From Candidatus Poribacteria bacterium (GTDB taxonomy: Bacteria; Poribacteria; WGA-4E; PCPOR2b): a stretch of DNA of 64,000 bases. Positions 13,376-33,667 of the stretch are shown in pieces (position 1 is the stretch's first letter; every line of letters begins with the position of its first letter). The stretch lies in contig OZ242351.1 of assembly GCA_965208675.1 (NCBI GenBank), forward strand, positions 2,784,001-2,848,000, written 5' to 3'. The notes below the pieces were generated by a model. It saw only the letters and a list, made by a program, of their open reading frames with translations. It did not search any database and was not told the origin of the DNA. The position numbers were made by a program, and so were the translations under genes.

Positions 13376-13391
13376 TGGCACATGAATTGCT
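13376..13391 (+). promoter_or_regulatory. sigma54 (-24/-12) promoter
   Basis: TGGCACATGAATTGCT is an exact TGGCAC-N5-TTGCW match upstream of the TolB-like gene. Confidence 0.75.
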
Positions 13392-18554: not shown

Positions 18555-18583
18555 TTGACATCTTTTGAGAAGCGTGTTATGCT
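18555..18583 (+). promoter_or_regulatory. sigma70-type promoter of the two-component operon
   Basis: TTGACA-17bp-TATGCT with an extended -10 TG. Confidence 0.6.
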
Positions 18584-18618
18584 ATGAATAACCTGCCTTG
18601 CAAGCACGGAGGTGTGAA

Positions 18619-20229
18619 ATGAAAGACGAGGATAAGACGCAAGCACAACCAAAAAGTGAATCACTACGCGTACGTCAGAATTCGGCGGTGTTTGAACGCG
18701 AACGCGTTCAGTTCAATCGGTTTGTGGAGGCAGACCCATATTTCAATTCCTCCGACATGCTTGCTTCAACGGATGGCGATACAGAGAAGATTCGCCACTG
18801 CAATGAAGCACTTTGCAAGAAACTGGGTTACGTTGAAGCGGAGATTGTCGGCCACCCTATTTCGAAGATTTATCATCCTGTCTGCCTCGAAGATGCAAAG
18901 GCGGGGTTCACCAGCCTTGTAAGTGACGGTGAAATACATGATGTGGAGCTAGTATTGCGGAAGAAAGATGGAGGTTCGGTGGATGTGAACTTGAGTGCCT
19001 CAACCATCCGTGATACAAGCGGAGGGTTACTTTATTGCCGGTACATATGGCGCGACATCACGCGGCATAAGGAGACTGAACGGAAACTTCGAGCGAGCGA
19101 AGCGCTCTTTCACCAGTTAGCGAACAGTATCCGCGAAGGTTTTTGGCTGATGTCGCTTGACGGGGGTGAGGTCTTGTACATAAGTCCCGGATACGAATCG
19201 ATGTGGGGAAGATCTCGCTCGGAACTATACGCAGACCCGATGTCGTGGACGAAGCACATTCATCCGGATGACCTAGAGGACATTTTGGCCACTTTCGAAA
19301 AACAGAAACACGGCGAGTGTGTAGAGTACGAGGGCCGTATCGTCAAACCCGATGGCGAAATCCGCTGGCTTCATGCGCGCGCCTTCCCAGTCAACGATGA
19401 GAACGGAAATCCCTACGTCGTTGCGGGCTTGACCCTGGATATCACCGAACGCAAGCGTGCCGAGCAACAGTTAATTCAAGCGAGCAAGATGGCTTCATTA
19501 GGAAGTCTGACGGCGGGCGTGGCGCACGAGATTAACAACCCGAACAATTTTATCTTGCTAAACGGAGAATCTCTTCAGAAATCTTGGGCAAGCGTAAAAC
19601 CGTTTCTGGATAAATATTGCGAAGAGCACGGGGATTTCATGTGCGCCGGCATGCCCTATTCGCAATTGCGAGGCGGTATCAACGAAATGGCGACCAGAAT
19701 CATTAACGGCGCGAATCGAATTAAAAAGATTGTAAAAGCGCTCGGCAATTTCGCACCTCAGGGTGACCTGGACCTAAGCCAACCGGTCAATTGTAATAAG
19801 GTGATTGACTCCGCAGTCCTAATTTTGGGGAATCTGATAAAAAAATCTACGAAAAACTTCTCGACTCAATTTGAGGACAATCTGCCTGATGTTCTCGGCA
19901 ACGCGCAACAGTTCGAACAGGTATGTATTAACTTAATCTCGAACGCTTGCCAAGCCCTGACCGACCATACAAAAAGCATCGTAGTTTCAACCCGCAAGCT
20001 TTCAAAGCAGGTGTTGATAGAAGTTCGTGATGAGGGTGAAGGGATTCCCTGCGAAAGTCTGCAGTCCATCACAGACGCCTTTTTCACCACCAAGCGAGAT
20101 GCCGGCGGCGTCGGACTAGGGCTTTCCATTTCTTACAATATCGTGGAGAATCATGGCGGGGAATTAACCCTCGCCTCCGAACTTGGAAAGGGAACGACAG
20201 CGTCAGTCAAGCTGCCCGCCGCCCCCTAA
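18619..20229 (+). CDS. Cytoplasmic PAS-PAS sensor histidine kinase (NtrB-like)
   Basis: Two PAS/PAC domains, H-box AGVAHEINNP, N-box NLISNA, G1 DEGEG, F-box and G2 GVGLGL. No TM segment seen. GGAGG RBS before ATG 18619. Confidence 0.92.
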   Translation: MKDEDKTQAQPKSESLRVRQNSAVFERERVQFNRFVEADPYFNSSDMLASTDGDTEKIRHCNEALCKKLGYVEAEIVGHPISKIYHPVCLEDAKAGFTSLVSDGEIHDVELVLRKKDGGSVDVNLSASTIRDTSGGLLYCRYIWRDITRHKETERKLRASEALFHQLANSIREGFWLMSLDGGEVLYISPGYESMWGRSRSELYADPMSWTKHIHPDDLEDILATFEKQKHGECVEYEGRIVKPDGEIRWLHARAFPVNDENGNPYVVAGLTLDITERKRAEQQLIQASKMASLGSLTAGVAHEINNPNNFILLNGESLQKSWASVKPFLDKYCEEHGDFMCAGMPYSQLRGGINEMATRIINGANRIKKIVKALGNFAPQGDLDLSQPVNCNKVIDSAVLILGNLIKKSTKNFSTQFEDNLPDVLGNAQQFEQVCINLISNACQALTDHTKSIVVSTRKLSKQVLIEVRDEGEGIPCESLQSITDAFFTTKRDAGGVGLGLSISYNIVENHGGELTLASELGKGTTASVKLPAAP

Positions 20230-20239
20230 AACTAACCGT

Positions 20240-21685
20240 ATGAATCCAATTCAGTTTCCTACCCATCCCATTCTACTGGTTGACGATGAAGCAGATTTCT
20301 TAGTCAGTGCAGATTATGCTCTCAAGTTAGCGGGCATTAATAATATCGTCCAATGCGGTGACAGCAGCGAAGTAATTCCGACGCTGTCGAAAAGAGACTT
20401 TTCGGTTGTCGTGCTGGACTTGCTGATGCCCGGCTTATCCGGTCTGGACATACTACCGTTGATTCTTGCGGACTTTCCAGAACTTCCCGTAGCGGTTTTC
20501 ACCGCAGTAAACAATGTGGAAACGGCGGTTGATTGTTTGAAAACTGGGGTGTACGACTACGTCCTGAAACCGATCGATAGCGCCAGGCTTGTGGCAACGG
20601 TTAGACATGGGGTAGAACTCAGCGAACTGCGGTGCCAATGTCGTCTGCTTAAGGAGCGTGTGCTGACGGACGCCTTGGAACATCCTGAAGCGTTCTCTGA
20701 CATTATTACTCAAGACAGCGGCATGCACGCCATTTTTCAATATGCCGAGGCAATCGCCCAAACCGACCTGCCAGTATTGATTACGGGCGAAACCGGTGTT
20801 GGCAAGGAACTGATTGCAGCGGCAATCCACAAGTTGAGCGGACGAGAGGGTGACTTCGTTTCAGTCAATATAGCGGGCCTCGACGACCACCTATTCTCGG
20901 ACACGCTTTTCGGCCACATAAAAGGGGCGTACACTGGGGCGGATAAGCCTCGCAAGGGATTGATTGAACAAGCGTCAAACGGCACGCTCTTCCTAGATGA
21001 AATCGGAGACCTGCACCTGGAGTCGCAGGTCAAACTGCTGCGTCTTCTGCAGGAAAGAACTTACTACCCGCTTGGCGACGATTTCCCGCGAACAAATAAC
21101 GCAAGAATAGTTGTTGCTACGAATCGAGATATACAATTCCTGAGAGAGTCCGAAACTTTTCGCAACGACCTCTACTTCCGCTTGCAAACTCATCATATTC
21201 ACCTGCCGCCGCTTCGTGACAGAGCGGGCGATATCCCGCTACTAGTTGCCCATTTCCTCAAAATCGCGGCTGAAAAACTAGGAAAGCAAATTCCCACGGC
21301 TTCACCAGAGGTCTTTACTTTGCTTAAAACGTATAATTTCCAGGGGAACGTCCGCGAACTTGAAGGCATGGTACTAGACGCTGTCAGTCGACACAAAGAG
21401 GGCGTACTCGACACACATACTTTCCGACAAGCGATTAACGAGCAGTCAACAGTTTCCGGAGAGGACATGACGCTGCAAGCAAGCGGGTTTGCGCATGTAT
21501 TGTCGGCGTTCCCCGCACTTCCGGATTTGAAGGAAACTTTGAAAGAAGCGGAACAACTGATAATTTCTGAAGCCCTTAAGCGCGCCGACAGCAACCAGAC
21601 CGTTGCCGCAAGACTCTTGGGCATATCGAAAAATGCGCTGCACAAGCGTTTAAGCCGCGCACGAACATCATCGGACGATGCGTAA
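20240..21685 (+). CDS. sigma54-dependent response regulator (NtrC/AtoC family)
   Basis: REC domain (LVDD, LDLLMP), Walker A GETGVGKE, GAYTGA, LFLDEIG, FRNDLYFRL, GNVRELE and a C-terminal Fis-type HTH. Confidence 0.93.
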   Translation: MNPIQFPTHPILLVDDEADFLVSADYALKLAGINNIVQCGDSSEVIPTLSKRDFSVVVLDLLMPGLSGLDILPLILADFPELPVAVFTAVNNVETAVDCLKTGVYDYVLKPIDSARLVATVRHGVELSELRCQCRLLKERVLTDALEHPEAFSDIITQDSGMHAIFQYAEAIAQTDLPVLITGETGVGKELIAAAIHKLSGREGDFVSVNIAGLDDHLFSDTLFGHIKGAYTGADKPRKGLIEQASNGTLFLDEIGDLHLESQVKLLRLLQERTYYPLGDDFPRTNNARIVVATNRDIQFLRESETFRNDLYFRLQTHHIHLPPLRDRAGDIPLLVAHFLKIAAEKLGKQIPTASPEVFTLLKTYNFQGNVRELEGMVLDAVSRHKEGVLDTHTFRQAINEQSTVSGEDMTLQASGFAHVLSAFPALPDLKETLKEAEQLIISEALKRADSNQTVAARLLGISKNALHKRLSRARTSSDDA

Positions 21686-21766
21686 AACGGCGTTGGCTTT
21701 TCCCACCCGCCCTCTCTAATCTGTATCAACCTGTCCTTCCACCCGCGATCACGCCTTCTAAAGGCG

Positions 21767-21785
21767 ACGCCTTTTCGGCGTTTTT
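21767..21785 (+). terminator. Possible intrinsic terminator after the response regulator
   Basis: ACGCC-TTTTC-GGCGT followed by a T-run. The stem is short. Confidence 0.35.
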
Positions 21786-21804
21786 GTAGCCATTGTGGCT
21801 ACAA
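21784..21804. promoter_or_regulatory. Candidate enhancer (UAS) for a sigma54 activator
   Basis: Perfect inverted repeat TTGTAGCCA-TTG-TGGCTACAA about 220 bp upstream of the -24/-12 box. A half-site GTAGCCA recurs near 21867. Confidence 0.5.
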
Positions 21805-22022
21805 CCCCCAAAACCCTAGTCTAGCAAGGCCTTACGTGCTTCTTAACCCCAATTTTCCCGAATCGCGTAGCCAAATTGTCGTTCCGCTCTTCATTTCTCG
21901 TCAGGACGATGGCGCGCCAGGGCGCGCCAGTCTGAAAAACATTTAAATGCCCGTATCCCTTGATACATCAGGGTTTCCGAGTCAAAACCGAGTTCAAATT
22001 CAAGCGGGATTGATTTTAGACT

Positions 22023-22038
22023 TGGCATAGAAATTGCG
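22023..22038 (+). promoter_or_regulatory. sigma54 (-24/-12) promoter
   Basis: TGGCATAGAAATTGCG with GG-N10-GC spacing, downstream of the bEBP gene and upstream of the exported-protein cluster. Confidence 0.7.
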
Positions 22039-22441
22039 CATTACGAGCCCAATCAGTAGAGCCTCCATGATCTAGAAATACTCCAAAGAAAGGAGAGGCG
22101 GAAAAATTTCTAAACTGGATTTTCGGTATCGCATATCGGTTCATTGTAGATATGCGCCGGATAAAGCAAAAACATATTGAGTGTACCTCACTCTCTCGCA
22201 ATTTCCCATTAGGCTCATTAGGCTAATGAACTTGAGGTCACAGCAGGTATTGAGTATTCGGGCAGTTCAGCAACATGCAGAGAATTGTGATTTAGAGGAC
22301 AAGTTCCTCACCTTGTAGCGTAATTCCGGCGAATTTCACTTCACAGTTTTTTTTGAATAACCGCAGGAATTTTGGCACGCTAACAAGCTTTTTTTTACCA
22401 GAAGGCAATTGCTTCTCCAAAACAGAAAGGAATAGTTTATC

Positions 22442-22663
22442 ATGACGAGAAAAGCGTTAACTCTAGGAATCGCTTTCATTTTAGTGATAGGCATGTTGTC
22501 TATTTCACTAATTACGAATTTTACCCAAGATGCAGACGCTCACCCTGCAAATTGCGTCACGATCATAATTTGCAAGAAAGATTCCGATGGCAATTTATAT
22601 GATTGTATACAGGCCACTATATGCGTACATTATCCAAACCACCCTAATTCAACTTCATCTTAG
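22442..22663 (+). CDS. Small secreted 4-Cys peptide (73 aa precursor)
   Basis: GAAAGGAA RBS, Sec-type signal ending ADA, and a 40-aa mature part with C-x5-C-x10-C-x5-C. Confidence 0.75.
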   Translation: MTRKALTLGIAFILVIGMLSISLITNFTQDADAHPANCVTIIICKKDSDGNLYDCIQATICVHYPNHPNSTSS

Positions 22664-23026
22664 AGGTCTCAGTAGTAGAAGATTGTTTGATAAAGTAGGT
22701 GACTTAGCCATTTTTGGGTGATTCGAAGGTCAAAGTCATTGGGTTTTCTAAGGTAATTACCCTAAAAAATTGATGGTACTCCCTTTTTTTTTGACCGATC
22801 AAACGTATGATGGTCTCTATCAGAAGCGGGATCCGTCTTCGAGAGCGGCAATTTAGGGATAAATGTCACGGAAACCTGATGATTTTGCCTCTCGAATAAC
22901 CCATAATGGTTTTTCACCCGCTTTTCAAATAAGTTCTAGGGAGTCGTCTTCTGTGGTTTCACTAAAAATAAGTGAAGATTAGGAAGCAGCGAGTTGGAGT
23001 GAAAAAAAAGTTATCACAAAAGTGAG

Positions 23027-23959
23027 GTGACAATGCGATTTGTAATTTATGGTATACTATGTTTAGCTTTGTTGAATTTCAGATCCGTTTTTCCAATTGA
23101 GTCTCATGGGCATGGAAAAGCACATGAATTGGAAAATGTATTGCCTATGCCGGAGAATCACACAGAATCGCACGATACTCCTGAAATTACGCAAGCGTTT
23201 AATCAAGTTACTACGAAAAAAATGTTCACTGCATTTAGGTCACCGCTTGAGAAGATTGCTCCAGAGGCAACACGCACCGAAATTTCGGCTATTGCTAAAA
23301 CTTTGTTCGGAATACATCCGCTAGCTGACGAGTGGGTATCGCGCTGTTACCGCTTGAGGCGTGATGGAAAAGGATCGTTTTCGGAACTGAAACGTTTTGC
23401 TGAATTGCAAATTCAAATGCTGTCAGACCTTGACACCACAAAACATGCCGAAGAGATTGAAGCGTATCAAGTTGCTCTGAAAGAGTTAGACCAAGTCGTC
23501 AAAATTTACAAACAGGCAAAAACAGTAAGCCTCCCGCTACGTACTTCTGAAGAGCTAGCTGGAGAAGCCTACGGTTGGGATTCGAAAGCATTAGAGCATC
23601 TTGTTAAGTTTGAGTCACTTCTTAAGGAAACAAACCTAGTAACTGCACGCGCCGAACTCTTGGAAATTGCCAAAATCCGGTTCGGAACTCATGCCCTTGC
23701 TGACGAGTGGATACCCCTTTATTTTCGCCTGAGTCATGAGGGAAAGGGGCTGATTTCAGATGTGACACGTATTTCTGAGTTGGAAATTCGAATGTTCACT
23801 GCTATTTCTGCCGAGAAGCATACTGAACCGATACAACAGCATCGAAAAGCAATGGCACAATACGGCGAAGTTGCCAAAACACTCAAAGCACAAGGTAAAA
23901 ATCTTGAAACTGTTGAAGTGGATTTCAAATCTCCCCTTGACCTTATAGGAGTATACTGA
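23027..23959 (+). CDS. Secreted hypothetical protein with tandemly duplicated ~125-aa helical domain
   Basis: Signal peptide and His-rich N-terminus. IAK..FG.H.LADEW occurs twice, 375 nt apart. Confidence 0.75.
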   Translation: MTMRFVIYGILCLALLNFRSVFPIESHGHGKAHELENVLPMPENHTESHDTPEITQAFNQVTTKKMFTAFRSPLEKIAPEATRTEISAIAKTLFGIHPLADEWVSRCYRLRRDGKGSFSELKRFAELQIQMLSDLDTTKHAEEIEAYQVALKELDQVVKIYKQAKTVSLPLRTSEELAGEAYGWDSKALEHLVKFESLLKETNLVTARAELLEIAKIRFGTHALADEWIPLYFRLSHEGKGLISDVTRISELEIRMFTAISAEKHTEPIQQHRKAMAQYGEVAKTLKAQGKNLETVEVDFKSPLDLIGVY

Positions 23960-24693
23960 TGAACATATGGTTATTGTTAGGAACGCCAAAAAAAATTATT
24001 TGTGGTCTTCTCATTCTAACCATCCTAATATGTACAGGAATTTTTTTCTACACCCAGTGGGATTTGAAACGTTTTAAAGAATCACTTAAGGAACAACCCG
24101 AAGTTTCACCGGTGACCGTCTCCCCGAGAGAAAAACTAACAGTCACGCAGGTTGAGGAAGCAGTATTGCCTGCTGAAACAGTGATACCAAAACTCTTAAT
24201 ACAGCGACCCGATGAATTTGAAATTGAAACAGAACCACCATCGCTGGAGACGTTTGATTCTGTCGTGAACAAACCCGTTCATTCTGAAGTAGAACCTTTG
24301 AACGAAGAAACTACCATTTTGCAACCAGAGGAACTTGAGGAAGAGGAAGCTACATGGGAAGGCCAGTTTCAACAAGACATAGACGGTGGGAGCGGTTTCG
24401 CAAGTCTTATTTCCATCCTGGAGTCTGATAACGTTGATATGTCTGGTGACTCAGAAGACCTTGCTACAGTCGTTCAAATGCTCAAGCGTTCGGCAGAGGG
24501 ACCAATGACCGCTGACGATTTAATTTTCATGACAAAGGCGTGGTTAAGAATTCAGCCTGATACACGGCATGTACAATCAGAGATAAATGAGACTCGCGAT
24601 TCGCTTAGGAATATACTCGAAAATCTCCAGGATGACAAGAAGAAGTCTTTGCGAAGTGGCGAAGAGACAAAGTATATGATTGATATATATTAG
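23959..24693 (+). CDS. Membrane-anchored hypothetical protein with acidic Pro/Thr/Glu-rich linker
   Basis: AGGAG RBS and TGATG coupling to the upstream gene. One N-terminal TM helix. Its stop TAG coincides with an IS5-type end. Confidence 0.7.
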   Translation: MNIWLLLGTPKKIICGLLILTILICTGIFFYTQWDLKRFKESLKEQPEVSPVTVSPREKLTVTQVEEAVLPAETVIPKLLIQRPDEFEIETEPPSLETFDSVVNKPVHSEVEPLNEETTILQPEELEEEEATWEGQFQQDIDGGSGFASLISILESDNVDMSGDSEDLATVVQMLKRSAEGPMTADDLIFMTKAWLRIQPDTRHVQSEINETRDSLRNILENLQDDKKKSLRSGEETKYMIDIY

Positions 24694-24880
24694 GTTCAGT
24701 TGGCATTTCAACGGAGCCAAATAAATAAGCGTGGAGACAAACCTTCAGAAATCCAAAATAACGGGCAGCCAACTTCTCGAACCGCGAGAAGATACGACGA
24801 TACCATTTTAGCTTGTTGGTGAAACATTCAACCAGATGTCTCTCTTTGTATGTATAAATGCGGTTCTTATGTTCTTTGAG
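24691..24880 (-). mobile_element. IS5-family transposase 3' remnant with terminal inverted repeat
   Basis: YKERHLVECFTNKLKWYRRIFSRFEKLAARYFGFL followed by a frameshifted FVSTLI..WLR*. The end reads TAGGTTCAGTTGGCATT. Confidence 0.8.
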
Positions 24881-25030
24881 CACCACAATTACGTCGAGGC
24901 GGAATCGCCGCCATGACTCCATTTGTCTGAGGTATAATAGTGCTTAGGGTAATTGCGAAAGTTTTCGCTAATTTCTTCTGAAGTGAAAGAATCTACATGG
25001 CTAACTCTTTAGTCTGAAAGGAGCAAAAAA

Positions 25031-25804
25031 ATGTCGTTCATAAGGAAACGTAGCAGGTATGTTCTTGGAGCCTCGTTGATTTCTGTTACGTTGTTTTTCG
25101 TATTCATAACGTACTACGTTGCCTATAAACCACAACCCGAATCCCAAATCGTCTATGTCCTTCCTGAGCGTGACCCGTCACGTGTAGACAACTTTACCGG
25201 TGATTCGCCATCCACAGTTGCCCACGTTTCTCCTCGCGCTCCACAATCCACAAATAGCACAACACAAAAGGCACCGGCAGTGTACTCTAACAACAACGAC
25301 ACCGAAGACACCGAAACCCTCGAAGATGGTAGCTATGAAGAAACAACTTTCTTGCCGCAAGCCACTAACGCGAACAGCGGTCGAAGTATGGCGCCCGAAC
25401 AGTTTCAAGCACTTCAAGAACGTGACAAGCGCTTGGTCGCATGGAAACGCGATTTCACAGAATACTTGGCGAAAGATCGAGCGTATACTGACGCCGACGT
25501 TGCCCGAGGGGTTTTGGCTATACGCACTATGAAAGCATTCACAGGATCGGTCTTGGGTACTCTATCACCCGAGAAACGCCAGACACTTCGTGACGCTATT
25601 GATGAAAACCTCTCCGATAACCTCTCAGTTGAAGAAGTGCAAGAGTTTTGGGAAGAAGTGCCAGGCAACCCGACAGAATCGCCCAATCAGCTTCTGTCCA
25701 ATCTCCGGGAATTACTACGCCCTGATGAAAAATCCAAAAAGGAATGGTATGAACTGAAACGTGAATCTGATCGGCTTCTAGCCGATTTAAATTCCCAACT
25801 ATGA
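25031..25804 (+). CDS. Membrane-anchored hypothetical protein with Ser/Thr/Pro-rich linker
   Basis: GAAAGGAG RBS, N-terminal TM helix, low-complexity linker and helical C-terminal region. Confidence 0.72.
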   Translation: MSFIRKRSRYVLGASLISVTLFFVFITYYVAYKPQPESQIVYVLPERDPSRVDNFTGDSPSTVAHVSPRAPQSTNSTTQKAPAVYSNNNDTEDTETLEDGSYEETTFLPQATNANSGRSMAPEQFQALQERDKRLVAWKRDFTEYLAKDRAYTDADVARGVLAIRTMKAFTGSVLGTLSPEKRQTLRDAIDENLSDNLSVEEVQEFWEEVPGNPTESPNQLLSNLRELLRPDEKSKKEWYELKRESDRLLADLNSQL

Positions 25805-25819
25805 AAGGAGTATACCACC

Positions 25820-26260
25820 ATGAGAAAACAGTTAGTATCCGTCACAAGTTTGATTGTTTTATGTTTGCATATTTTCACGTTCTACTGTCACAGCCACGAC
25901 GATAACAACTGCCAGTCTTATCGTGATGCGTACGAGGCGGCAAAGAAAGCACGTGAAGAGGCGTGGAAAGATAAGGAAGCAGCTGGCAGAACAGTTTTTT
26001 GGTCCGGGCTCGGGGGGGCTGGTGGCGGTGCCTTTTCAGGAGGGCCAATTGGCATGGCTATTGGTGTGGGCATTTCCCTTGCCGCAACGTACCCAGGATA
26101 CATGCGTGCTATGGAAAAATACACAGACGCGGTAATCGCTTTAAGGGCAGCTACAGATGCATTGCAAGACTGTCTTGATAATCTTGGGCAAGATAATAAT
26201 AGTAATATTCAAGATGGGGGAAACGACGAAGCAAGAAGAGATGAAGAATCAAGCAGTTGA
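25820..26260 (+). CDS. Secreted glycine-zipper/hydrophobic-hairpin protein
   Basis: GAAAGGAG RBS and signal peptide. Helix - GLGGAGGGAFSGGPIGMAIGVGISLAA - helix, flanked by two Cys. Confidence 0.75.
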   Translation: MRKQLVSVTSLIVLCLHIFTFYCHSHDDNNCQSYRDAYEAAKKAREEAWKDKEAAGRTVFWSGLGGAGGGAFSGGPIGMAIGVGISLAATYPGYMRAMEKYTDAVIALRAATDALQDCLDNLGQDNNSNIQDGGNDEARRDEESSS

Positions 26261-26281
26261 TAACCAAGGCAAAATAGATTA

Positions 26282-26388
26282 GGGTCTGTTTGAAAAGTAG
26301 GTGGAAACCCGATTGTTGGGACATGTGAGTGTTAAAACCACTGGATTTCCAAGGCGTTTACCCCAAATTAGACTTTTCAAACAGTCTC
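26282..26388. mobile_element. MITE-like element (107 bp)
   Basis: 17-bp terminal inverted repeats GGGTCTGTTTGAAAAGT / ACTTTTCAAACAGTCTC (15/17 match). Confidence 0.65.
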
Positions 26389-26393
26389 AGAAT

Positions 26394-26411
26394 CTAGGTT
26401 CTGTTGACATT
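26394..26411. mobile_element. Isolated IS5-type end
   Basis: CTAGGTTCTGTTGACATT is nearly identical to the IS end at 24691 and in the same orientation. Confidence 0.5.
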
Positions 26412-26460
26412 ACATTGAAGAAGAGAAGAGGAAATCAGTATTCTCAAAACCACCCACCCA

Positions 26461-28143
26461 ATGAAACGCTTCTCTCTCATTTTGGTATTATGCTTGTTTG
26501 CGATTGCTTCAGTACCGCGACTCTTTTCTTTAGGTGCCCACTGGTCAAGTGATGAAGCACTGTGGTTACGTCGCAGTACGGATTTCATGTTGGCCGTTAA
26601 GGAGCGCAATTTCTCAAAAACCCTCGTATCTTACCACCCCGGCGTCATGACGATGTGGATTGCCGGACTCCGCACGTTTTTTTTTGAACCAAAGGTAAAT
26701 GTTCGAAACCTTGCATTTGGCCGGTGGTTTATCGGCGTAGTGGTGTTGATAGGGCTTGTTGCCGCGTTTTTCTTGCTGTATCGACTGTTCGGGCTTTGGG
26801 TTTCAGTCATCAGTTTCACGTTTTTAGTCTGCTCTCCGCTGTTTTTAGCTCAATCTCGCCGCGTCCACACCGATGCGTTAGCAGCGGTTTTCTGCTTGTT
26901 GGCGGTATTAGCTTTCCTACTGTATTGCCAAACTCCGAAGAAACAGCGCTATCTGATTGGTTCCGGGGTTGCCTTTGGGTTGGCGTGCCTTGCCAAAAGC
27001 TATTCGCTCATCCTGCTATTGTGGGTGCCGCTCTGTTTAGGGTTATTCCGGAATGAATCGGTGATTTGGCGACAGTTCCTTTTTAACTCTCTTGGAGTGG
27101 CGATTTGTTTTCTGAGTTGCGCGTTGCTAACTGCATTTGTGCTGTGGCCCGTTTTCTGGACGTTCCCCTTTTTTATCTTTGGGTTGTGTCTGTTAGGTAT
27201 TATCGCCTTTACGCATCGGTGGTCGCAAAAAGAGACACATCAGCTACTCCTGCCGTATTTATCGTCATTTCTGGTGTTAGGTGTGGTTTGCGTCTGTGTG
27301 ATGCGGACGGTTTGGCTTGTCTTAGATAGAGTTGGCTGGGCGGTGACCACACCGCATGAGGTAGAACATTTCTTTTTAGGGCAGGTGGTCCATGATCCCG
27401 GCTGGTTCTTCTACCCGTTAGTGCTTTGTATAAAGAGTACACCGTTAACGCCTTCCCTTGCACTCGGCGGGTGTCTCTTTCTTTGGTGGCGGCGGGGGCA
27501 GGAAGAATGCGCACGGCAGTTTCGGATAGCGCTCGGATTGATGGCTGTTGTTTTACTGTTTACTGTCTGTCTCTCGCTGACGAGTAAAAAGTTCAGTCGG
27601 TATCTGTTACCTGCGTTCCCGATTTTGGAGATACTCGCAGCAGTTGGGTTTGTTGCGTTCCTCAAGTGGAGCTATTCCTACATCAACACCCGCTTCAGCA
27701 CCGAAGCAACCCTTCCTAAAGTTTTCTTTTGCGTCGTTGCAATCCTCTGCTTCTTTATGATTCAGGTGATTCCGGTATTACGGCTGCATCCCTACTACGG
27801 CACGTACTACAATCTCTGCTTCAAGTTGACCGATATAACAAAAATCATCACGGTAGGAGAAGCGTCGGGTTTGGATATTGCCGCAAAATATCTCAATCAG
27901 AAGCCGAACGCCCACAAAATTAACGTTCAAGTATCACCGTTGGCAACAGAATTTGTGCGTCGGTATTTTATAGGAAACGCGTATCGGGCAGACAGAGAAA
28001 CGAGGCTGAAACCGGCGTATGAGGTAGTCTATATTCGCGACTTACAAATTGGGCGTGTGCCACAATCAGGGACGTTGCATGGAACGTTGGAGTGTATAAT
28101 AACACTCAACGGGATTGACCATGTTTGGATTTATCGGGTATAA
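26461..28143 (+). CDS. GT-C fold glycosyltransferase (ArnT/PMT_2-like, GT39/GT83-type)
   Basis: DE motif after TM1 (SSDEALW), HPG, HTDA, AKSY and RYLLP motifs, many TM helices and a C-terminal soluble domain. Confidence 0.82.
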   Translation: MKRFSLILVLCLFAIASVPRLFSLGAHWSSDEALWLRRSTDFMLAVKERNFSKTLVSYHPGVMTMWIAGLRTFFFEPKVNVRNLAFGRWFIGVVVLIGLVAAFFLLYRLFGLWVSVISFTFLVCSPLFLAQSRRVHTDALAAVFCLLAVLAFLLYCQTPKKQRYLIGSGVAFGLACLAKSYSLILLLWVPLCLGLFRNESVIWRQFLFNSLGVAICFLSCALLTAFVLWPVFWTFPFFIFGLCLLGIIAFTHRWSQKETHQLLLPYLSSFLVLGVVCVCVMRTVWLVLDRVGWAVTTPHEVEHFFLGQVVHDPGWFFYPLVLCIKSTPLTPSLALGGCLFLWWRRGQEECARQFRIALGLMAVVLLFTVCLSLTSKKFSRYLLPAFPILEILAAVGFVAFLKWSYSYINTRFSTEATLPKVFFCVVAILCFFMIQVIPVLRLHPYYGTYYNLCFKLTDITKIITVGEASGLDIAAKYLNQKPNAHKINVQVSPLATEFVRRYFIGNAYRADRETRLKPAYEVVYIRDLQIGRVPQSGTLHGTLECIITLNGIDHVWIYRV

Positions 28144-28420
28144 AGAGGTCCGTGCAGGGGAACTGAATCCCGTTTCGATTCCGCGTTCCATAGTTCTGCT
28201 CTCGGAGCATTAATACTCAAAAATTAGCTCGCCGAAATTGCTATGATGATTTTGTGTAAAGATACCTGAGACTAACTGATTTGAAATCAACGCAGTGCAT
28301 CGGGTAACTACAAGTGAAAACAGCTCTGAAAATTTCGACTCGACTGTTGCATACGCTTCAGCGAATTCGCAATTCTTAAACCGATTAACCATCGGATTCA
28401 AGGTATGATGGGGATAATTA

Positions 28421-28655
28421 GGGCGTCGGATACACCGATTCTTCAAACCGCCGAGAATCTGAGAAAACTACTGTTGGAAATGCGACACAGACGACCACCC
28501 AAGTCATCGTCATTCAGTTTCTATGCAATATGAGCAAGGCGTCGTCTTTGGCAAACGGGCGTTTTCGCGTGCAGGGAAAGAGGTGTTCATGAAGATTGAC
28601 GCCGATTTGCAAGACGGTCCTAACGAAATTCGAGACATGATAGCGAAATTGAGGA
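28421..28655 (+). pseudogene. Decayed fragment of a GT2 gene paralogous to 29480-30517
   Basis: Aligns by eye with 29681-29915 (AAGTCATCGTCATTCAGTTT..GATTGACGCCGATTTGCAAGACG vs AAGTCATCGTCATCCAGTTT..GATTGATGCCGATCTGCAAGACG) and contains indels. Confidence 0.75.
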
Positions 28656-28796
28656 GAAATACCGTGTTGTTCCCTTGCATAGAAAGAAAAAGAAGGTAAT
28701 TGCACAGTCCCCCAAAATGTTGAAGTAGCGTATCCGCAGCGTTAGCTATCAGACTTGCAATTCGCTGATGGATCTAGTGGAAAATTGGAGGCGGAG

Positions 28797-29249
28797 ATGC
28801 GGAATGAAACAATGGGAGCAGTAAAACATCACATTGGAATTGCTGTAGTATTGTTCGTAAGTCTTTTTGTGAGTTCGCCTTTCCTCATAATTGAGAGCAA
28901 CCAGACTCGTGCGCATGAAGACTTATTGCAACGTGGCCGGACAAATCAAGCGAGAGGAAATCCGACTTTTGACCGGAATCGTGATTTCTATCGTGTAATC
29001 GTTGAAAATAACCTTTTTCGTCCATTGGGCTGGAGGCCACCCAAACGTGAACCTGAGTACGCACTGGTTGCAACTTGGATTGAATCTGGCGGTGAAACTG
29101 CCAAAGCTCTTCTGGTAGAACGCCGATCTAAAAAAACCTATTACGCGGCTATAGGCGAAAGGGTAGGGAATGCAACAATTGAAAACATCGAATCCAAACG
29201 GGTCGACCTGAAAATTTCGGGCAAGAGAGTCACCCTTAATCTCCCTTGA
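28797..29249 (+). CDS. Hypothetical protein with GspC/PilP-like HR domain
   Basis: Signal/TM segment, NNLFRP, then ALVAT..AKALL..TYY..IGERVGNATIENIESKRVDL..G..VTLNL, resembling the T2SS C-protein homology region. GGAGG RBS before ATG 28797. Confidence 0.6.
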   Translation: MRNETMGAVKHHIGIAVVLFVSLFVSSPFLIIESNQTRAHEDLLQRGRTNQARGNPTFDRNRDFYRVIVENNLFRPLGWRPPKREPEYALVATWIESGGETAKALLVERRSKKTYYAAIGERVGNATIENIESKRVDLKISGKRVTLNLP

Positions 29250-29479
29250 GAGCATTTCATTGATTTGAGAAGATTCACTGATTAAGCGATGGTCTAGGCG
29301 ATCCAATCATGGCGCCGAGACGTCCCGAAGTAATCCGGTATAGATAAACTGAAATCTAGGGTAAACACCGGTAAAATCGTAGGGAAGTGGTCTCAGTTCG
29401 CGAGAAGAATGTCGTAATGATACACCAGAAAGTCGCCAGCAGCTTATTTCATTTCGTAAGTTGCAGTAATGACAACGAT

Positions 29480-30517
29480 ATGAAAACACCAAATCAAATC
29501 TCCATTATCACACCCGTATTCAACGAATCTGTAACCCTTAAAATCCTCTATCATCAGTTTCGAGATGTGATGCGGGAAAATGGGGCGCCGTATGAAATAA
29601 TTTTCGTGGACGATGGCAGCACAGATGGTTCTTTTGACATCATGGAGGAGATTTATAACTACCATCTAGAAGGGGCGTCAAGGGTGTCGGATACCGCATG
29701 CCCTTCAAGTCCAGAATATGAGGAACCTCTCGTTAGAGATTCGACAAAGATGCCATCTGAAGTCATCGTCATCCAGTTTCGGCGCAATATGGGCAAGGCG
29801 ACCGCTTTGGCAGCGGGGTTTACGCGTGCAAGGGGAGATGTTGTCATCACGATTGATGCCGATCTGCAAGACGACCCGAGCGAAATTCCAACCTTGTTGG
29901 CGAAAATCGAGGATGGTTACGATGTCGTATCCGGTTGGAAAATCAACCGACGGGATTCGTGGTCCAAAGTGCTGCTCTCACGAATCTTCAATCGGGTGGT
30001 CTGTTGGTGTACACATCTGAACCTCCACGACGTCAACTGTGGGTTCAAAGCCTATAGACGCCAAGTGATTGAGGAACTCTTGGTTTACGGCGATCGACAT
30101 CGTTATTTGCCGATTTTAGCTCACCAAAACGGCTTTCGGGTCGCGGAAGTGCCGGTGAAGCATCATCCACGGCATTATGGCAAATCGAAATACGGCCTTG
30201 GACGTATTCCCCGCGGCTTTATGGATTTGTTGACCATTCTTTTTCTCAATCGATACTTGAAACGGCCTCTCCACTTCTTTGGGGTACTGGGGTTCCTATG
30301 CCTATTCACCGGCACAGGTATAAATACTTACCTTGCGATACTATGGTTGATTCAAAAGGGCATCGGATTTCGTCCCCTGCTTATGCTGGGTATTCTGTTA
30401 ATGATCGTGGGGTTGCAATTTTTCTCCATCGGCTTTTTGGGTGAGATGTTCACCAACGCCTTTGAGCGTTTAGATCGCCGCTACCCTATCAAAAGAGTGT
30501 TAGAAGGACAAAAATAG
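29480..30517 (+). CDS. Polyprenol-phosphate glycosyltransferase (GT2, ArnC/GtrB/DPM1-like)
   Basis: PVFNE, VDDGSTD, IDADLQDDP, NCGFKAYR, HRYLP and G.SKY motifs with two C-terminal TM helices. Carries a ~30-aa insertion. Confidence 0.9.
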   Translation: MKTPNQISIITPVFNESVTLKILYHQFRDVMRENGAPYEIIFVDDGSTDGSFDIMEEIYNYHLEGASRVSDTACPSSPEYEEPLVRDSTKMPSEVIVIQFRRNMGKATALAAGFTRARGDVVITIDADLQDDPSEIPTLLAKIEDGYDVVSGWKINRRDSWSKVLLSRIFNRVVCWCTHLNLHDVNCGFKAYRRQVIEELLVYGDRHRYLPILAHQNGFRVAEVPVKHHPRHYGKSKYGLGRIPRGFMDLLTILFLNRYLKRPLHFFGVLGFLCLFTGTGINTYLAILWLIQKGIGFRPLLMLGILLMIVGLQFFSIGFLGEMFTNAFERLDRRYPIKRVLEGQK

Positions 30518-30526
30518 GGTGAAAAT

Positions 30527-31501
30527 GTGATATCCATCATTATTCCGACCTACAATCGAAAAGATGAGCTAGAAGACTTACTCCCCTCGCTCAGACAGCA
30601 GGAGTGTTCTTGTTCCTTTGAAATTATCGTTGTCGATGATGGCTCAACGGATGGGACATGCGAACTACTAAAAAACCTAGCCGAAGACTGGAAAGGGAGG
30701 TTGCGGTTTCTTAAGCAAAATCGTGCTGGTCCGGGAGCTGCGAGGAATTTGGGAATAAAACACGCTCACGGCGATATCTTAGTCTTTGTCGATTCAGATT
30801 GCATTGCGCCTTTCGGCTGGCTGGACAATCTGACCTCGGTTTTCGACAAACCGCAAGTTGGAGCGGTTGGCGGCTCTGAGTTGGCACCAATTGATGATTG
30901 TTTACTTCGAAGGTGCCAGAGTTACGTAATGACTGCTTTCCTCACCACCGGCGGGCTGCGAGGGAAAAAGGGAAAGAAACTTGGCGTCTATTATCCGCGT
31001 GGTTTTAATATGGCTGTCAGAAAGTGCGCCGTCGACGCCGTCGGAGGAGTTCCCAATCGATTCCATGGGGAAGATATTCTCCTAAGTTTAAAGGTGAAGC
31101 AGATAGGTTACACCCTCGAATATGTACCGGATGCAGCAATTTATCATCACAGGCGTGCAACGGTGAGCCAATATTTTAGGCAACTGTACCGGATGGGAAA
31201 GGCGAGAGTCGAAATGATCCATCTGCACAAATCCTTATTGGAACCCGTATACACGTTGCCGGCAATTGCGTTACTGCTTGCCATTCTACTAGTCTGTGGA
31301 GCGATATTCTCTGAAACGCTTTTTAAGGTTGTTGGGGGAGGTATGATAATAACGACACTGTTTCTTACTGCTGTCGGCATTGATAGTGCAACCCGTCTGA
31401 AAACCGTGAAGGCTTTTGCGATTGTGCCCTTTCTGTTTATGATACAACAGACAGCATATGGGTTAGGAACAATCGTCGCTGCATTTAGGAGACAAGCATG
31501 A
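30527..31501 (+). CDS. GT2 family glycosyltransferase
   Basis: IIIPTYNR, VDDGSTD, GPGAARN, FVDSD and GED motifs with C-terminal TM segments. Confidence 0.9.
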   Translation: MISIIIPTYNRKDELEDLLPSLRQQECSCSFEIIVVDDGSTDGTCELLKNLAEDWKGRLRFLKQNRAGPGAARNLGIKHAHGDILVFVDSDCIAPFGWLDNLTSVFDKPQVGAVGGSELAPIDDCLLRRCQSYVMTAFLTTGGLRGKKGKKLGVYYPRGFNMAVRKCAVDAVGGVPNRFHGEDILLSLKVKQIGYTLEYVPDAAIYHHRRATVSQYFRQLYRMGKARVEMIHLHKSLLEPVYTLPAIALLLAILLVCGAIFSETLFKVVGGGMIITTLFLTAVGIDSATRLKTVKAFAIVPFLFMIQQTAYGLGTIVAAFRRQA

Positions 31502-32415
31502 AGGACTACTCTTTACCAGCGGGAAATTTGAAAACCACTAATCGGTTGGAGGGCGGAACTCGCCTTGGGGGCAATTTCGACAGAGAGTTGAACGATGATA
31601 ATCCGCTTGTGAGCATTATTACGATTTGCCTTAATTCAGAGAAAACCCTTGCGCAAACCATCCAATCGGTAATTAACCAGACCTACAATCCCATTGAATA
31701 TCTTATTATCGATGGCGGCTCAACGGATAGCACCTTGGATATCATAAGAAAATACGATGACCAAATTGATTATTGGCTGAGTGAACCTGACGATGGGACC
31801 TCCCATGCGATAAACAAGGGACTACAGTTGAGCCGCGGCGAGCTGATTGGCATTTTGTGTGCCGATGACTTCTATGAACAAGATGCGGTGCAAACTATAA
31901 TCGGAAATTATTCAGCCGATACACCGAAAATCTATCACGGCAATATGACGCGAATTGATGTCCAAACAGGGGAGAAAACATTCATCGTAAAGCCGCCCGA
32001 TGACCTAGAAAGGTTGTTCCAAGGCTGCGTGGTTAATACAGCCACCGCTTTTGTAGATCGCCGAGTTTTCGAAAAACATAGTTTGTTTGACCATCGCTAT
32101 AAATTAGCAAATGACCACGAGTTTCTGCTACGGGTATTTTTGGCAGGCGTGGAATTCGAATACATCCCAAGAAATATAACCTTCATGCGTGATGGCGGGA
32201 TGAGCCAGAAGAATTATATTCGGGCTAGTCGCGAACGCTTTAACTTGTCCGTCTATTACGGTTACGCGGTTCCAAAAGCCCTTTTTGTATTTCTAGCTAC
32301 GTTCCTTAAAAAGGCAGTTGAACGTCGAATTGCGAAGTGGTGTCCCTTCTTGCTAAAACCGTACTGTAGTTTTAAGTTCTTGTCACTAAAGAGTAGCATG
32401 TGGCACGGCAATTGA
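31498..32415 (+). CDS. GT2 family glycosyltransferase (WcaE/WfgS-like)
   Basis: IIDGGSTD, SEPDDG..AINKG, LCADD and GGMS motifs. Confidence 0.88.
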   Translation: MKDYSLPAGNLKTTNRLEGGTRLGGNFDRELNDDNPLVSIITICLNSEKTLAQTIQSVINQTYNPIEYLIIDGGSTDSTLDIIRKYDDQIDYWLSEPDDGTSHAINKGLQLSRGELIGILCADDFYEQDAVQTIIGNYSADTPKIYHGNMTRIDVQTGEKTFIVKPPDDLERLFQGCVVNTATAFVDRRVFEKHSLFDHRYKLANDHEFLLRVFLAGVEFEYIPRNITFMRDGGMSQKNYIRASRERFNLSVYYGYAVPKALFVFLATFLKKAVERRIAKWCPFLLKPYCSFKFLSLKSSMWHGN

Positions 32416-32468
32416 GAACTAAAACTATTTTGTAAAGTTTCAATCCCCACTGAAAAGGGCGCCGATTA

Positions 32469-33404
32469 ATGACGCACGTTTTGGTAACTGGAGGCGCCGG
32501 TTACATTGGTACCATTCTTTGCGAACACCTTCTAGCTGAAGGTTACCGCGTGAGCGTCCTCGACAACCTGATGTACCGTCATGGTAGCCTCTTCCACCTC
32601 TGTGTCCATAAAGCCTTCGATTTCGTTAAGGGAGATGTACGAGATGAAGAGTTCATGCGCCGTCTTATGAAGGACGCCGATGTGCTCATCCCACTTGCAG
32701 CGGTTGTCGGGGCGCCCACCTGCGACCGCGATCCATGGTTGGCACAGTCAGTGAATCTGGAGGCGGTGCGGACGCTTAATCGACTCAGATCTTCCCAGCA
32801 GTTGGTTATCTTTCCTACGACGAACAGCGGCTACGGGACGCAGTCCGGCGAGACATATTGTACAGAAGACACACCGCTGCAGCCGATTTCGCTCTACGGT
32901 CAGACAAAGGTGCAGGCGGAGATGGAGATACTCGACAGCCCCAACAGTATTACATTGCGTCTTGCAACGGTGTTCGGTATGTCGTCCCGTATGCGTCTGG
33001 ACTTGCTGGTGAACCATTTCGTCTATGCAGCGGTCACGGACGGCTATATCGTCATCTTTGAAAAGGATTTCAAGCGCAACTATCTCCACGTCCGTGACGC
33101 GGCGGATTGTTTTATTCACTGCATTAAGAATGCGGAGTTGATAGTGGGACGCCCATACAACGTGGGATTAGATAATGCCAATCTATCGAAGATGGAACTG
33201 GCGTTGAAGATTAAGGAACACGTACCGAAATTCTATCTTCACTTCTCGGAAATTGGCAGCGACCCGGACAAACGAAACTACATCGTTTCCAACCAGCGGT
33301 TGCGTGATGCCGGATTTGAGGCGCGGCGCTCACTGGACGATGGGATAGAAGAGTTGCTGAAAGGGTATCGCATGTTGGGGCGGGCGCCTTTCAAAAATGT
33401 CTAA
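32469..33404 (+). CDS. NAD-dependent epimerase/dehydratase (extended SDR)
   Basis: VTGGAGYIG, YxxxK (YGQTK), RLATVFG and RLDLLVN motifs. Confidence 0.9.
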   Translation: MTHVLVTGGAGYIGTILCEHLLAEGYRVSVLDNLMYRHGSLFHLCVHKAFDFVKGDVRDEEFMRRLMKDADVLIPLAAVVGAPTCDRDPWLAQSVNLEAVRTLNRLRSSQQLVIFPTTNSGYGTQSGETYCTEDTPLQPISLYGQTKVQAEMEILDSPNSITLRLATVFGMSSRMRLDLLVNHFVYAAVTDGYIVIFEKDFKRNYLHVRDAADCFIHCIKNAELIVGRPYNVGLDNANLSKMELALKIKEHVPKFYLHFSEIGSDPDKRNYIVSNQRLRDAGFEARRSLDDGIEELLKGYRMLGRAPFKNV

Positions 33405-33471
33405 AAGGGAGAGATTCCCCTCTGACAAGCTTACGATTACCCACACGTCCAGAAATTCGCACGGAGCCACG

Positions 33472-33526
33472 CTGTGGGAGGGAAATCCTTCTCCCGATTA
33501 TCGAGGCAGGGATGCCTCTCCCACAG
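33472..33526. repeat. 55-bp REP/REPIN-like palindromic element, copy 1
   Basis: CTGTGGGAGGG...CTCTCCCACAG. A related 55-bp copy lies at 39195-39249. Confidence 0.7.
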
Positions 33527-33631
33527 TAAGGACGCCTTGTCGGTTCTATCATAATCATTCCCCTCCTTACCAAGGAGGATCAACTGACCGAATAGGGAAG
33601 GCGATAGTTTTTATAGTTATTCCTAGTTCGT

Positions 33632-33667
33632 GTAGGTTGGGTTGAGCAGGCGAGCGTAACCCAACCT
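33632..33667. repeat. GTAG-type REP hairpin
   Basis: GTAGGTTGGGTT-loop-AACCCAACCT. Confidence 0.6.

Follow-up and report, generated by a model that had tools for sequence, protein, structure and literature searches.

A hypervariable peptide gene and a GT-C glycosyltransferase gene behind a predicted sigma-54 promoter in Candidatus Poribacteria

Do the genes that follow a kinase, an activator and a putative sigma-54 promoter in a Candidatus Poribacteria genome form one regulated system, and which of their products could be exported or glycosylated? The question is raised by positions 18555-29249 of a stretch of 64,000 nucleotides (the window; assembly GCA_965208675.1, contig OZ242351.1, positions 2,784,001 to 2,848,000 of the forward strand) in a complete genome of 4.89 Mb. 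The original prediction was a sigma-54-controlled cassette of seven co-oriented genes whose products are all exported or membrane-bound. Seven co-oriented open reading frames (ORFs) were confirmed, named here by order and length A73, B310, C244, D257, E146, F560 and G164; six of them have one N-terminal hydrophobic segment each, and F560 has many. Our comparisons suggest a lineage-specific module of a peptide and a GT-C glycosyltransferase behind a sigma-54 switch, in which exported peptides and/or linker proteins would be glycosylated in the periplasm, a reading that we regard as evenly balanced between right and wrong. The seven genes and the adjoining glycosyltransferase family 2 (GT2) gene are:

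22442-22663, plus strand: A73, secreted-peptide precursor, recognized by family comparison
23027-23959, plus strand: B310, exported protein with two copies of a helical domain of ~110 aa, found by self-comparison
23959-24693, plus strand: C244, linker protein anchored in the membrane at its N-terminus, with a disordered linker that leads to a four-helix C-terminal domain
25031-25804, plus strand: D257, orphan ORF whose N-terminal anchor is followed by a linker rich in Ser/Thr (24%) and by a helical C-terminal part
25820-26260, plus strand: E146, orphan ORF that starts with a signal-like segment and contains the glycine-rich stretch GLGGAGGGAFSGGPIGMAIGVG
26461-28143, plus strand: F560, GT-C glycosyltransferase (PMT_2-like), from Pfam PMT_2 and its relatives
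28755-29249, plus strand: G164, membrane-anchored paralogue of the GspC/PilP homology region (HR) domain, C-terminally truncated and without PDZ domain
29387-30517, plus strand: GT2a, ArnC/GtrB/PgfS-like GT2 with two C-terminal hydrophobic segments

The A73 peptides and the F560 glycosyltransferase

A73 combines a conserved 33-aa leader ending in ADA with a 40-aa core that contains four Cys and three His and ends in NSTSS; the four Cys noted in the original prediction all lie in this mature part. The search with A73 gave 41 places in 14 of the 29 family genomes, with similarity confined to residues 1-35/40, and A73-like genes occur in 13 of 20 sister-genus genomes and in none of the three other genomes of the own genus. 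The precursors have 64-75 aa and a leader near MLRKALTLGMVFILALSLLAVSMITCFTYDAEA, and their cores are unalignable past a Cys or two. The family alignment contains 11 invariant positions, ten of them in the leader and one a Cys in the otherwise variable core. When the family profile was run against 1.84 billion representatives, it found 27 proteins at E <= 1e-3 and 21 at E <= 1e-10. As judged from these sequences, the A73 family is restricted to Poribacteria and carries a hypervariable His/Cys/Trp-rich core behind a near-invariant leader. At the DNA level, conservation around the start codon extends from about -80 to +100 and drops sharply beyond.

The composition of the cores was derived from 34 unique sequences, with truncated and aberrant ones left in. 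They consist of 10% His, 7% Cys, 6% Trp and 9% Asp and begin with His (23/34) or Asp (8/34) in most cases. Thr is found among the last five residues of 30 of the 34 cores, compared with a share of 0.236 expected from composition, and Thr or Ser in 33. The conserved leader and hypervariable core could belong to a precursor of a peptide that is made by ribosomes and modified after translation (RiPP); the leader is Sec-like with an A-x-A site, and neither a RiPP recognition element nor a cytoplasmic modifying enzyme was found at the locus. Two other identities of A73 were rejected. Prepilins carry the motif G/(F,M)xxxE or G/xxxxEY, and the pilin reading was dropped because this motif is missing: Gly9 is followed by MVFIL or IAFIL with no Glu at +5, and A73 has no Pfam match. 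A lipoprotein was rejected as the required Cys is absent.

F560 scores 35.3 bits against PMT_2, above the cutoff of 26.1, and has 13 overlapping hydrophobic windows, which we read as about 11 membrane segments. GT-C enzymes have acidic residues in the first extracytoplasmic loop; in F560 the residues D31-E32 of the first loop, together with R133, H136 and D138, are invariant in 13 sequences. These features assign the protein to the predicted GT-C enzymes of the PMT_2 / ArnT-PMT-like type, in agreement with the original naming of the ORF. No solved structure matched F560 by sequence at E <= 1. Its closest relatives come from Candidatus Poribacteria; its identity is 63-66% to the sister-genus GT-Cs that are linked to peptides and 34-37% to the two GT-C paralogues in the own genome.

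The evidence that ties the two genes together is their recurrent neighborhood. Peptide and GT-C coordinates were compared after split GT-C pieces had been merged and six GT-C rows with less than 60% identity dropped (one in genome G010, two in G004, two in the own genome and one in G002). A GT-C gene starts downstream of 24 of the 41 peptide matches within 1 kb, of 28 within 2.5 kb and of 31 within 6 kb. Seen from the enzyme, 30 of 36 F560-type GT-C loci have an A-like peptide gene in the same orientation no more than 6 kb upstream; of the other six, two have a B-like and C-like pair, and L020 of G007 also has another small signal-bearing ORF. By these counts, the small peptide and the GT-C are a strongly conserved pair. 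Strict and relaxed pattern scans found no -24/-12 box upstream of the sister-genus peptide genes. In three sister-genus loci (L077, L078 and L079 of G011, G014 and G007), peptide-GT-C modules recur every ~9-10 kb, flanked by a protein with a helix-turn-helix (HTH) and an SBP_bac_5 domain, an architecture that we take to be SgrR-like, a TylF-type O-methyltransferase and several exported PD40-repeat proteins.

F560 and GT2a could also be an ordinary three-component periplasmic glycan modification system acting on O-antigen, lipid A or exopolysaccharide, with the small exported proteins as unrelated neighbors, which we consider unlikely. GT2a matches the ArnC model of NCBIfam with E 2.3e-57 and 194 bits, short of the equivalog cutoff of 529, and the PgfS model with 1.5e-35. 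The ArnC/DPM1-like character originally ascribed to this neighbor is borne out as ArnC/GtrB-like, and GT2a is presumed to be the polyprenyl-phosphate sugar synthase that supplies the GT-C donor. A GT-C gene stands directly before an ArnC-like GT2 gene in four other Poribacteria loci (L025, L026, L029 and L030), followed in the last two by an LPG_synthase_TM protein, and the window itself runs into a big glycan cluster that starts with:

30527-33404, plus strand: GT2b, GT2c and an NAD-dependent epimerase; the sister species and a paralogous locus (locus 3, below) share this part

The cluster continues to about 42348 with a GHMP kinase, dehydratases, a thiamine pyrophosphate enzyme, an aminotransferase and a Wzx/MATE-like flippase. 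The logic of three-component systems (GtrA/GtrB/Gtr; ArnC/ArnT; GT136 systems) is described in PMC11127046, and such systems are widespread; the window resembles them in its ArnC/GtrB-like GT2 with C-terminal membrane segments beside a GT-C and in the downstream cluster with its flippase. It departs from them in that no small flippase lies beside the GT-C and GT2a pair, and in that the sister-genus GT-C is linked to peptide rather than glycan genes: it adjoins a peptide gene in 30 of 36 loci, and the three 13-kb loci examined there have neither GT2 nor glycan genes. Moreover, up to ten F560-type GT-C matches occur in a single genome, which would be odd for a side-branch enzyme of glycan synthesis. 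Inside the glycan cluster, a B12-binding radical SAM enzyme is encoded at 39299-40822, beside the DegT aminotransferase and the Wzx/MATE-like flippase.

The regulatory unit and the origin of the mosaic

The genes in front of A73 were proposed to be a PAS-PAS kinase and an NtrC-type activator followed by a perfect palindrome and a -24/-12 box. All four elements were confirmed where they had been placed:

18598-20229, plus strand: PAS-PAS histidine kinase, soluble (Pfam PAS_3/PAS_9/HisKA/HATPase_c; no hydrophobic segment)
20183-21685, plus strand: NtrC-type sigma-54 activator with receiver, AAA+ and Fis-type HTH domains, from Pfam
21784-21804, no strand: perfect 9-3-9 palindrome TTGTAGCCA-TTG-TGGCTACAA, from the sequence
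21932-22052, plus strand: conserved promoter element around the -24/-12 box; homology to paralogous loci ends at 22052
22023-22037, plus strand: -24/-12 box TGGCATAGAAATTGC with GG-N10-GC spacing
22053-22441, plus strand: promoter-to-A73 stretch of 389 nt, unique in the genome

The activator has all the marks of an NtrC-type bacterial enhancer-binding protein, i.e., Response_reg (1.4e-21), Sigma54_activat (E 7.6e-57) and HTH_8 (3.8e-7) in Pfam and a GAYTGA loop (GAFTGA-type) in its translation, and its 325 bits against the NCBIfam ntrC model stay under the equivalog cutoff. Its true start is likely the ATG near 20240 (MNPIQF). The palindrome, ~230 bp upstream of the -24/-12 box, is a candidate binding site of the activator; paralogous loci have dyads, different ones, at the aligned position. 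The pattern TGGCAY-N5-TTGC has five matches in the window compared with 0.38 expected, and none of 100 shuffles reached five. By its pattern, its placement and its conservation in paralogous loci, TGGCATAGAAATTGC qualifies as a predicted sigma-54 promoter. The other plus-strand matches in the window lie at 13376, 60573, 63153 and 63971, and the whole genome has 80 on both strands.

The association of such a promoter unit with exported proteins recurs in the genome as a paralogous architecture that three loci share: a PAS kinase and an NtrC-type activator, then dyads upstream of an identical -24/-12 box, and behind the box exported cargo, a GT-C and an ArnC-like GT2. The genome has four full kinase-activator pairs of the window type and one activator fragment, and the kinase has three more full-length paralogues with 59-71% identity. 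The exact 15-mer of the box occurs at four sites, three of which lie upstream of a GT-C gene, and the cargo behind each differs. Locus 3 (3318589-3335379) begins with a kinase (71%), an activator (77%), the box and a 678-aa glutaredoxin-like membrane protein, continues with further exported proteins, among them an FGE-sulfatase protein and two membrane-anchored proteins, and a GT-C (34% to F560), and ends with GT2a (77%), GT2b, GT2c and the epimerase. Locus 2 (3949969 to 3936515, minus strand) starts with the activator fragment, the box and the 678-aa protein; a 150-aa Cys-rich exported protein, a protein with Peptidase_C39 and DUF1573, a membrane-anchored protein and an IS3 element follow, and the locus closes with genes for an FGE-sulfatase protein and a GT-C (37%), a G164-like gene and a fragment of GT2a. 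The region between activator and box can be aligned across the paralogous loci and the sister species. All paralogues (window 21686-22060; L054-L057, L062 and L063) have a near-identical box and a near-identical block that contains the inverted repeat CCCTTGATACATCAGGG, and the upstream dyads vary by paralogue, as if each activator had one site of its own.

The paralogous sigma-54 loci also encode Cys-rich exported proteins of 141-168 aa (L062 3946182-3946634, minus strand; L055 8928-9425; L029 5122-5628; L054 10007-10432). Two of these proteins have LxxxxMxxIVGG-like motifs after the N-terminal hydrophobic segment, which resemble double-glycine leaders. Their genes adjoin those for exported proteins with Peptidase_C39 and DUF1573, for 678-aa glutaredoxin-like membrane proteins and for FGE-sulfatase proteins, and the group looks like a periplasmic peptide-maturation set.

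DNA homology to all paralogous loci stops at 22052, just past the box, and the first gene, ~60-65 nt past the box in these loci, is 405 nt away in the window. The last ~50 nt of the intervening stretch are conserved with the 5' regions of the sister-genus peptide genes. For 22049-22441, Rfam gave no match at E <= 1 and the fold was unremarkable (z = -1.04). Simple scans for terminators and sigma-70 promoters stayed at shuffle level (14 vs 12.9 and 14 vs 15.0). Upstream, on the opposite strand, lie genes for a DUF4212 protein and a sodium:solute symporter. These divergent transporter genes were considered as targets of the activator and set aside, as the strict pattern gives no minus-strand box there; such a role is also weakened by the recurrence of the activator-promoter unit elsewhere without that transporter.

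In the nearest sister species, the match to the window is 95% as far as 18346 and 83% starting at 29481. Between these points this species has an activator (59% protein identity), the box and a different cargo with a GT-C of another type. At the syntenic place in this species (G002, L054 3749-5173), the activator is present, but no kinase gene lies between the DUF4212 gene and the activator. We read the locus as a sister-genus-like foreign block that may have been set behind a resident promoter and received later insertions. Comparison of the loci shows a pattern in which one peptide-GT-C module would have taken the place of the cargo at one of the three paralogous sigma-54 loci and would have arrived with B310 and two orphan ORFs flanked by insertion sequence (IS) scars. 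On gene content, the locus is best described as a mosaic of a regulatory chassis, a conserved peptide/C244/GT-C core and add-ons. This does not agree with a single sigma-54 cassette as originally proposed, since in the sister genus the block of A/B, C and GT-C genes stands with no two-component system.

Linker proteins, orphan frames and the GspC-like protein

The halves of B310 are 37% identical (E 4e-21), an internal duplication that confirms the duplicated-domain protein of the original prediction. The family is present in 17 of 41 relatives and restricted to relatives within Poribacteria; B310 had no Pfam or NCBIfam match and no usable match in the ESM Atlas. Its only full-length orthologue and its own-genome paralogue stand beside genes for extracytoplasmic function (ECF) sigma fusions, not beside GT-C genes. 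At genome positions 2768059-2771271 and at L011 8178-10909, B310-family genes lie downstream of genes for proteins of 500-558 aa whose N-terminus, read from the sequence alone, is ECF sigma-like and fused to a long extension.

C244 and D257 each have an anchor and a linker, as claimed for two of the seven proteins. In the predicted structure of C244, a helix (11-44) is followed by a low-confidence region (46-143) with a predicted local distance difference test (pLDDT) score near 30 and by a helical domain (143-233) with 75-94, and the conserved motif WDLKRF comes directly after the membrane helix. The linker of ~100 residues consists of 21% Glu, 11% Pro, 9% Thr and 5% Ser. Among near-length proteins in a database of 5.8 billion clusters, C244 has 19 relatives including itself, none with a Pfam domain. 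A fold search with the C-terminal domain gave a best VIA Z of 6.7, among generic helical bundles and under the noise level that the tool states for helical folds. C-like genes are found in the gap from peptide gene to GT-C gene or directly behind a B-like gene, C244 is a frequent third member of the module, and B-like and C-like genes are adjacent in seven genomes.

A predicted complex of C244 with A73 scored 0.49 compared with 0.01 for the best control. In the calibration of the tool, the mark was reached by 116 of 157 solved complexes and by 2 of 215 mismatched pairs, and the range up to 0.60 holds just 18 of the 157 solved complexes but both mismatches, so that the prediction lends weak support to a contact. 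Three runs share at least 61% of the contacts, and the partner pLDDT is at least 60. Such a contact would suit another explanation, in which the A-type peptides are no substrates of the GT-C but bind metal in the periplasm or at the surface, or serve as small membrane-anchored partners of the enzyme, and the N-terminal segment is a functional membrane helix. The His and Cys content of the cores, their usual start with His and their often His-rich tails point the same way, as does a leader conserved far beyond the need of a signal peptide. We consider this explanation very doubtful, given the canonical A-x-A site before the core and a hypervariable exposed part that would be atypical of structural subunits or metal sites.

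D257 and E146 have no homologues in 40 relatives and none among near-length proteins of the 5.8-billion-cluster database. An N-terminal likeness of D257 to a 224-aa sister-species protein (PEIQIVYVLPDE) was dropped, as the search gave no confirmation. When hairpin topology was looked for in E146, only the signal-like segment passed the hydrophobicity threshold, and Pfam gave no glycine-zipper family at E <= 0.01, with a sub-threshold Uteroglobin match only. These orphans, together with the position of the B310 family by ECF sigma fusions elsewhere, contradict the claim that the seven genes are one conserved cassette. A second study holds near-identical short contigs that cover parts of B310, D257 and F560; the stretch is therefore no assembly artefact.

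The original prediction went on to toxin-like effectors with chaperone or immunity partners. In this scenario, A73 and E146 would be bacteriocin- or toxin-like, C244 and D257 would confer immunity or act as chaperones, and the role of the GT-C would be maturation of the effector or protection of the producer. Many copies that share a conserved leader and differ in a hypervariable core are what diversifying peptide weapons look like, E146 has its glycine-rich stretch, and paralogous sigma-54 loci hold the Cys-rich peptides with the double-glycine-like motif and the Peptidase_C39 proteins. We nevertheless consider the scenario quite improbable, and nothing at the locus indicates these roles: no ORF has a toxin, bacteriocin or immunity family in Pfam or NCBIfam, the cores are acidic and His-rich, not cationic or amphipathic, E146 and D257 are orphans, and the locus has no dedicated exporter.

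G164 had been called GspC-like, with the remark that GspC selects substrates of the type II secretion system (T2SS). Its model has pLDDT 91-96 for the 10-residue blocks 101-160, and the best Foldseek match is the GspC HR domain of enterotoxigenic Escherichia coli (3oss_C, E 8e-4, TM-score 0.79 on target, root-mean-square deviation 2.8 over 70 columns), followed by PilP, LspC and the PulC HR domain. The predicted C-terminal beta domain, which superposes on the GspC HR domain, supports the GspC-like label at the level of fold. By sequence, G164 matches NCBIfam GspC_delta with E 1.3e-4, far under the cutoff of that model, and its 164 aa gave no Pfam domain at E <= 0.01 and nothing meaningful among solved structures. 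It shares the motif FYxVIxxNNLFRP with a 282-aa GspC-like protein of the T2SS cluster of the genome. Unlike GspC, G164 is without a PDZ domain and is surrounded by glycosyltransferase genes instead of a secretion operon, and the charged tail found in its closest relatives is missing; G164 is therefore GspC-like in fold only, and the selection of T2SS substrates is unsupported because both the PDZ domain and the T2SS context are missing. The HR family was found in all 101 Poribacteria genomes searched, usually in several copies. G164-like genes lie between GT-C and GT2 in locus 2 and near GT-C genes or remnants in L029, L032 and L058, a loose recurrent association as far as gene order can tell. 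G164 may be a spare copy of a secretin-binding HR domain.

The cluster that encodes the 282-aa protein (L064, 1354325-1364694) resembles a T2SS or a type IV pilus cluster, with pseudopilin-like genes, the 282-aa GspC/PilP-like gene and, adjoining it, a gene for a 1008-aa secretin-like protein; these names rest on motifs and gene order. The 282-aa protein, the sole one of this cluster run against Pfam, had no match.

The stretch was described as AT-richer than its flanks and as scarred by mobile elements, and both observations hold. The G+C content is 0.40-0.43 over 22000-24999 compared with 0.50-0.515 just upstream, over 20000-21999, and the scars are:

24605-24922, minus strand: C-terminal fragment of an IS5-family transposase (NCBIfam transpos_IS5_3, E 6.9e-9)
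24682-24928: repeated element overlapping the IS5 fragment, with copies in the own and sister genomes
26279-26378, no strand: short dispersed repeat in the gap between E146 and the GT-C gene, with copies in the own and sister genomes
28268-28699, plus strand: degenerate ArnC-like GT2 remnant, from blastn to GT2a copies

D257 and E146 sit between the IS5 fragment and the short repeat. Past the F560 stop come the decayed 5' part of an ArnC-like gene, then G164 and then the intact GT2a; the remnant still matches Pfam Glycos_transf_2 on 28523-28699 (E 0.0053) and may mark a recombination junction. Farther downstream, past the epimerase gene, the element at 33412-33647 has 123 blastn matches in the own genome and many in sister genomes and is probably a MITE-like repeat.

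The IS5 fragment, the GT2 remnant, the repeats and the low G+C, together with two orphan ORFs, the long gap after the promoter and the truncation of G164 relative to its relatives, would be expected if the locus were no functional unit at all, i.e., a recombination hotspot of decaying or spurious ORFs behind a promoter that now drives nothing. We consider this extremely improbable: A73, B310, C244 and F560 are intact and have intact relatives, the catalytic-loop residues of the GT-C are invariant, and near-identical pieces of the cassette exist in the second study.

A possible periplasmic glycosylation route

The regulated module that exports and possibly glycosylates small proteins, as originally envisaged, stands in part: the sigma-54 unit and the peptide-GT-C link remain, and the seven-gene cassette does not. 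In the module that we propose, the kinase would phosphorylate the activator, which would bind the palindrome and open the sigma-54 promoter. The peptide would be exported by the Sec pathway, cut after the A-x-A site and disulfide-bonded. GT2a would load a sugar onto polyprenyl phosphate on the cytoplasmic face, and after flipping, the GT-C would transfer the sugar in the periplasm. The sugar could go to the conserved Thr at the C-terminal end of the peptide, to the linkers of C244 and D257, which are rich in Ser/Thr/Pro, or to both.

The nearest experimental precedent appears to be in streptococci, where GtrB with the GT-C PgtC2, and the Pgf system, glucosylate Ser/Thr-rich extracytoplasmic disordered regions of membrane proteins (PMC12041528). 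Like these systems, the window has a GT2 of the polyprenyl-phosphate sugar synthase type (GT2a to PgfS, E 1.5e-35), an extracytoplasmic GT-C and, in C244 and D257, anchored proteins with disordered linkers. It differs in that it belongs to a Gram-negative-type sponge symbiont and is known from sequence alone, that the GT-C is paired with a hypervariable peptide, and that the C244 linker is mostly acidic.

In Pseudomonas aeruginosa, the gene for the GT-C TfpW stands beside the pilin gene whose product TfpW glycosylates. Like this pilin (bioRxiv 10.1101/2020.04.19.049825), A73 is a small exported protein in which the hydrophobic N-terminus is conserved and the C-terminal part, with its disulfides, varies; unlike it, A73 lacks the prepilin motif, has the A-x-A site, is half the size of a pilin and has no adjacent pilus genes. 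With glycocins, which are S-/O-glycosylated RiPPs (e.g., PMC12457901), the module shares a small, disulfide-bonded ribosomal peptide with a leader and a dedicated glycosyltransferase. Glycocins use a cytoplasmic GT2, nucleotide sugars and C39-ABC export, whereas our locus has a membrane GT-C and a Sec-type leader.

Several points weigh against the proposed module. Gene adjacency alone leaves the role of the peptide as acceptor undemonstrated, and the binomial figure for the C-terminal Thr, a tail of 2e-15, takes no account of the relatedness of the sequences. A73 itself has no Trp and does not have the usual H-T-G ending. Ser and Thr make up just 14% of the mainly acidic C244 linker (21% Glu). 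D257 and E146 may not be real genes, and both differences in the second study fall at second codon positions in the frame as read here. The gap of 389 nt between promoter and peptide gene compares with about 60-65 nt in the paralogous loci. No flippase gene was recognized in 18555-33404; a Polysacc_synt/MatE protein is encoded downstream in the glycan cluster, at 40837-42348. The sister-genus module has neither a nearby ArnC-like GT2 nor a two-component system, and the combination in the window is therefore a one-off assembly.

A bolder version of the proposal, which we advance tentatively and think rather unlikely, is that Poribacteria make a new class of Sec-exported, hypervariable His/Cys/Trp-rich peptides that are glycosylated by GT-C enzymes at the C-terminal Thr or, bolder still, at Trp. 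The modules, with up to about ten GT-C matches per genome, could have diversified for interaction with the sponge host, phages or competitors, and one of them would here have been put under a two-component and sigma-54 switch.

The known substrates of GT-C enzymes are lipids, glycans and a few proteins. A genetic tie of such an enzyme to small peptides with a fixed leader and a free core is undescribed in the literature that we reached, namely the open literature on Poribacteria, GT-C enzymes and leader peptides, with supplements and non-open papers outside its scope. The locus also shows a paralogous chassis of kinase, activator and sigma-54 promoter that is able to capture differing exported cargos. 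One peptide, one GT-C and one ArnC-like GT2 make a compact set for heterologous work. If the proposed module is true, it would represent a periplasmic, lipid-donor route to glycopeptides, distinct from the cytoplasmic route of glycocins, in uncultivated sponge symbionts that are known for natural products.

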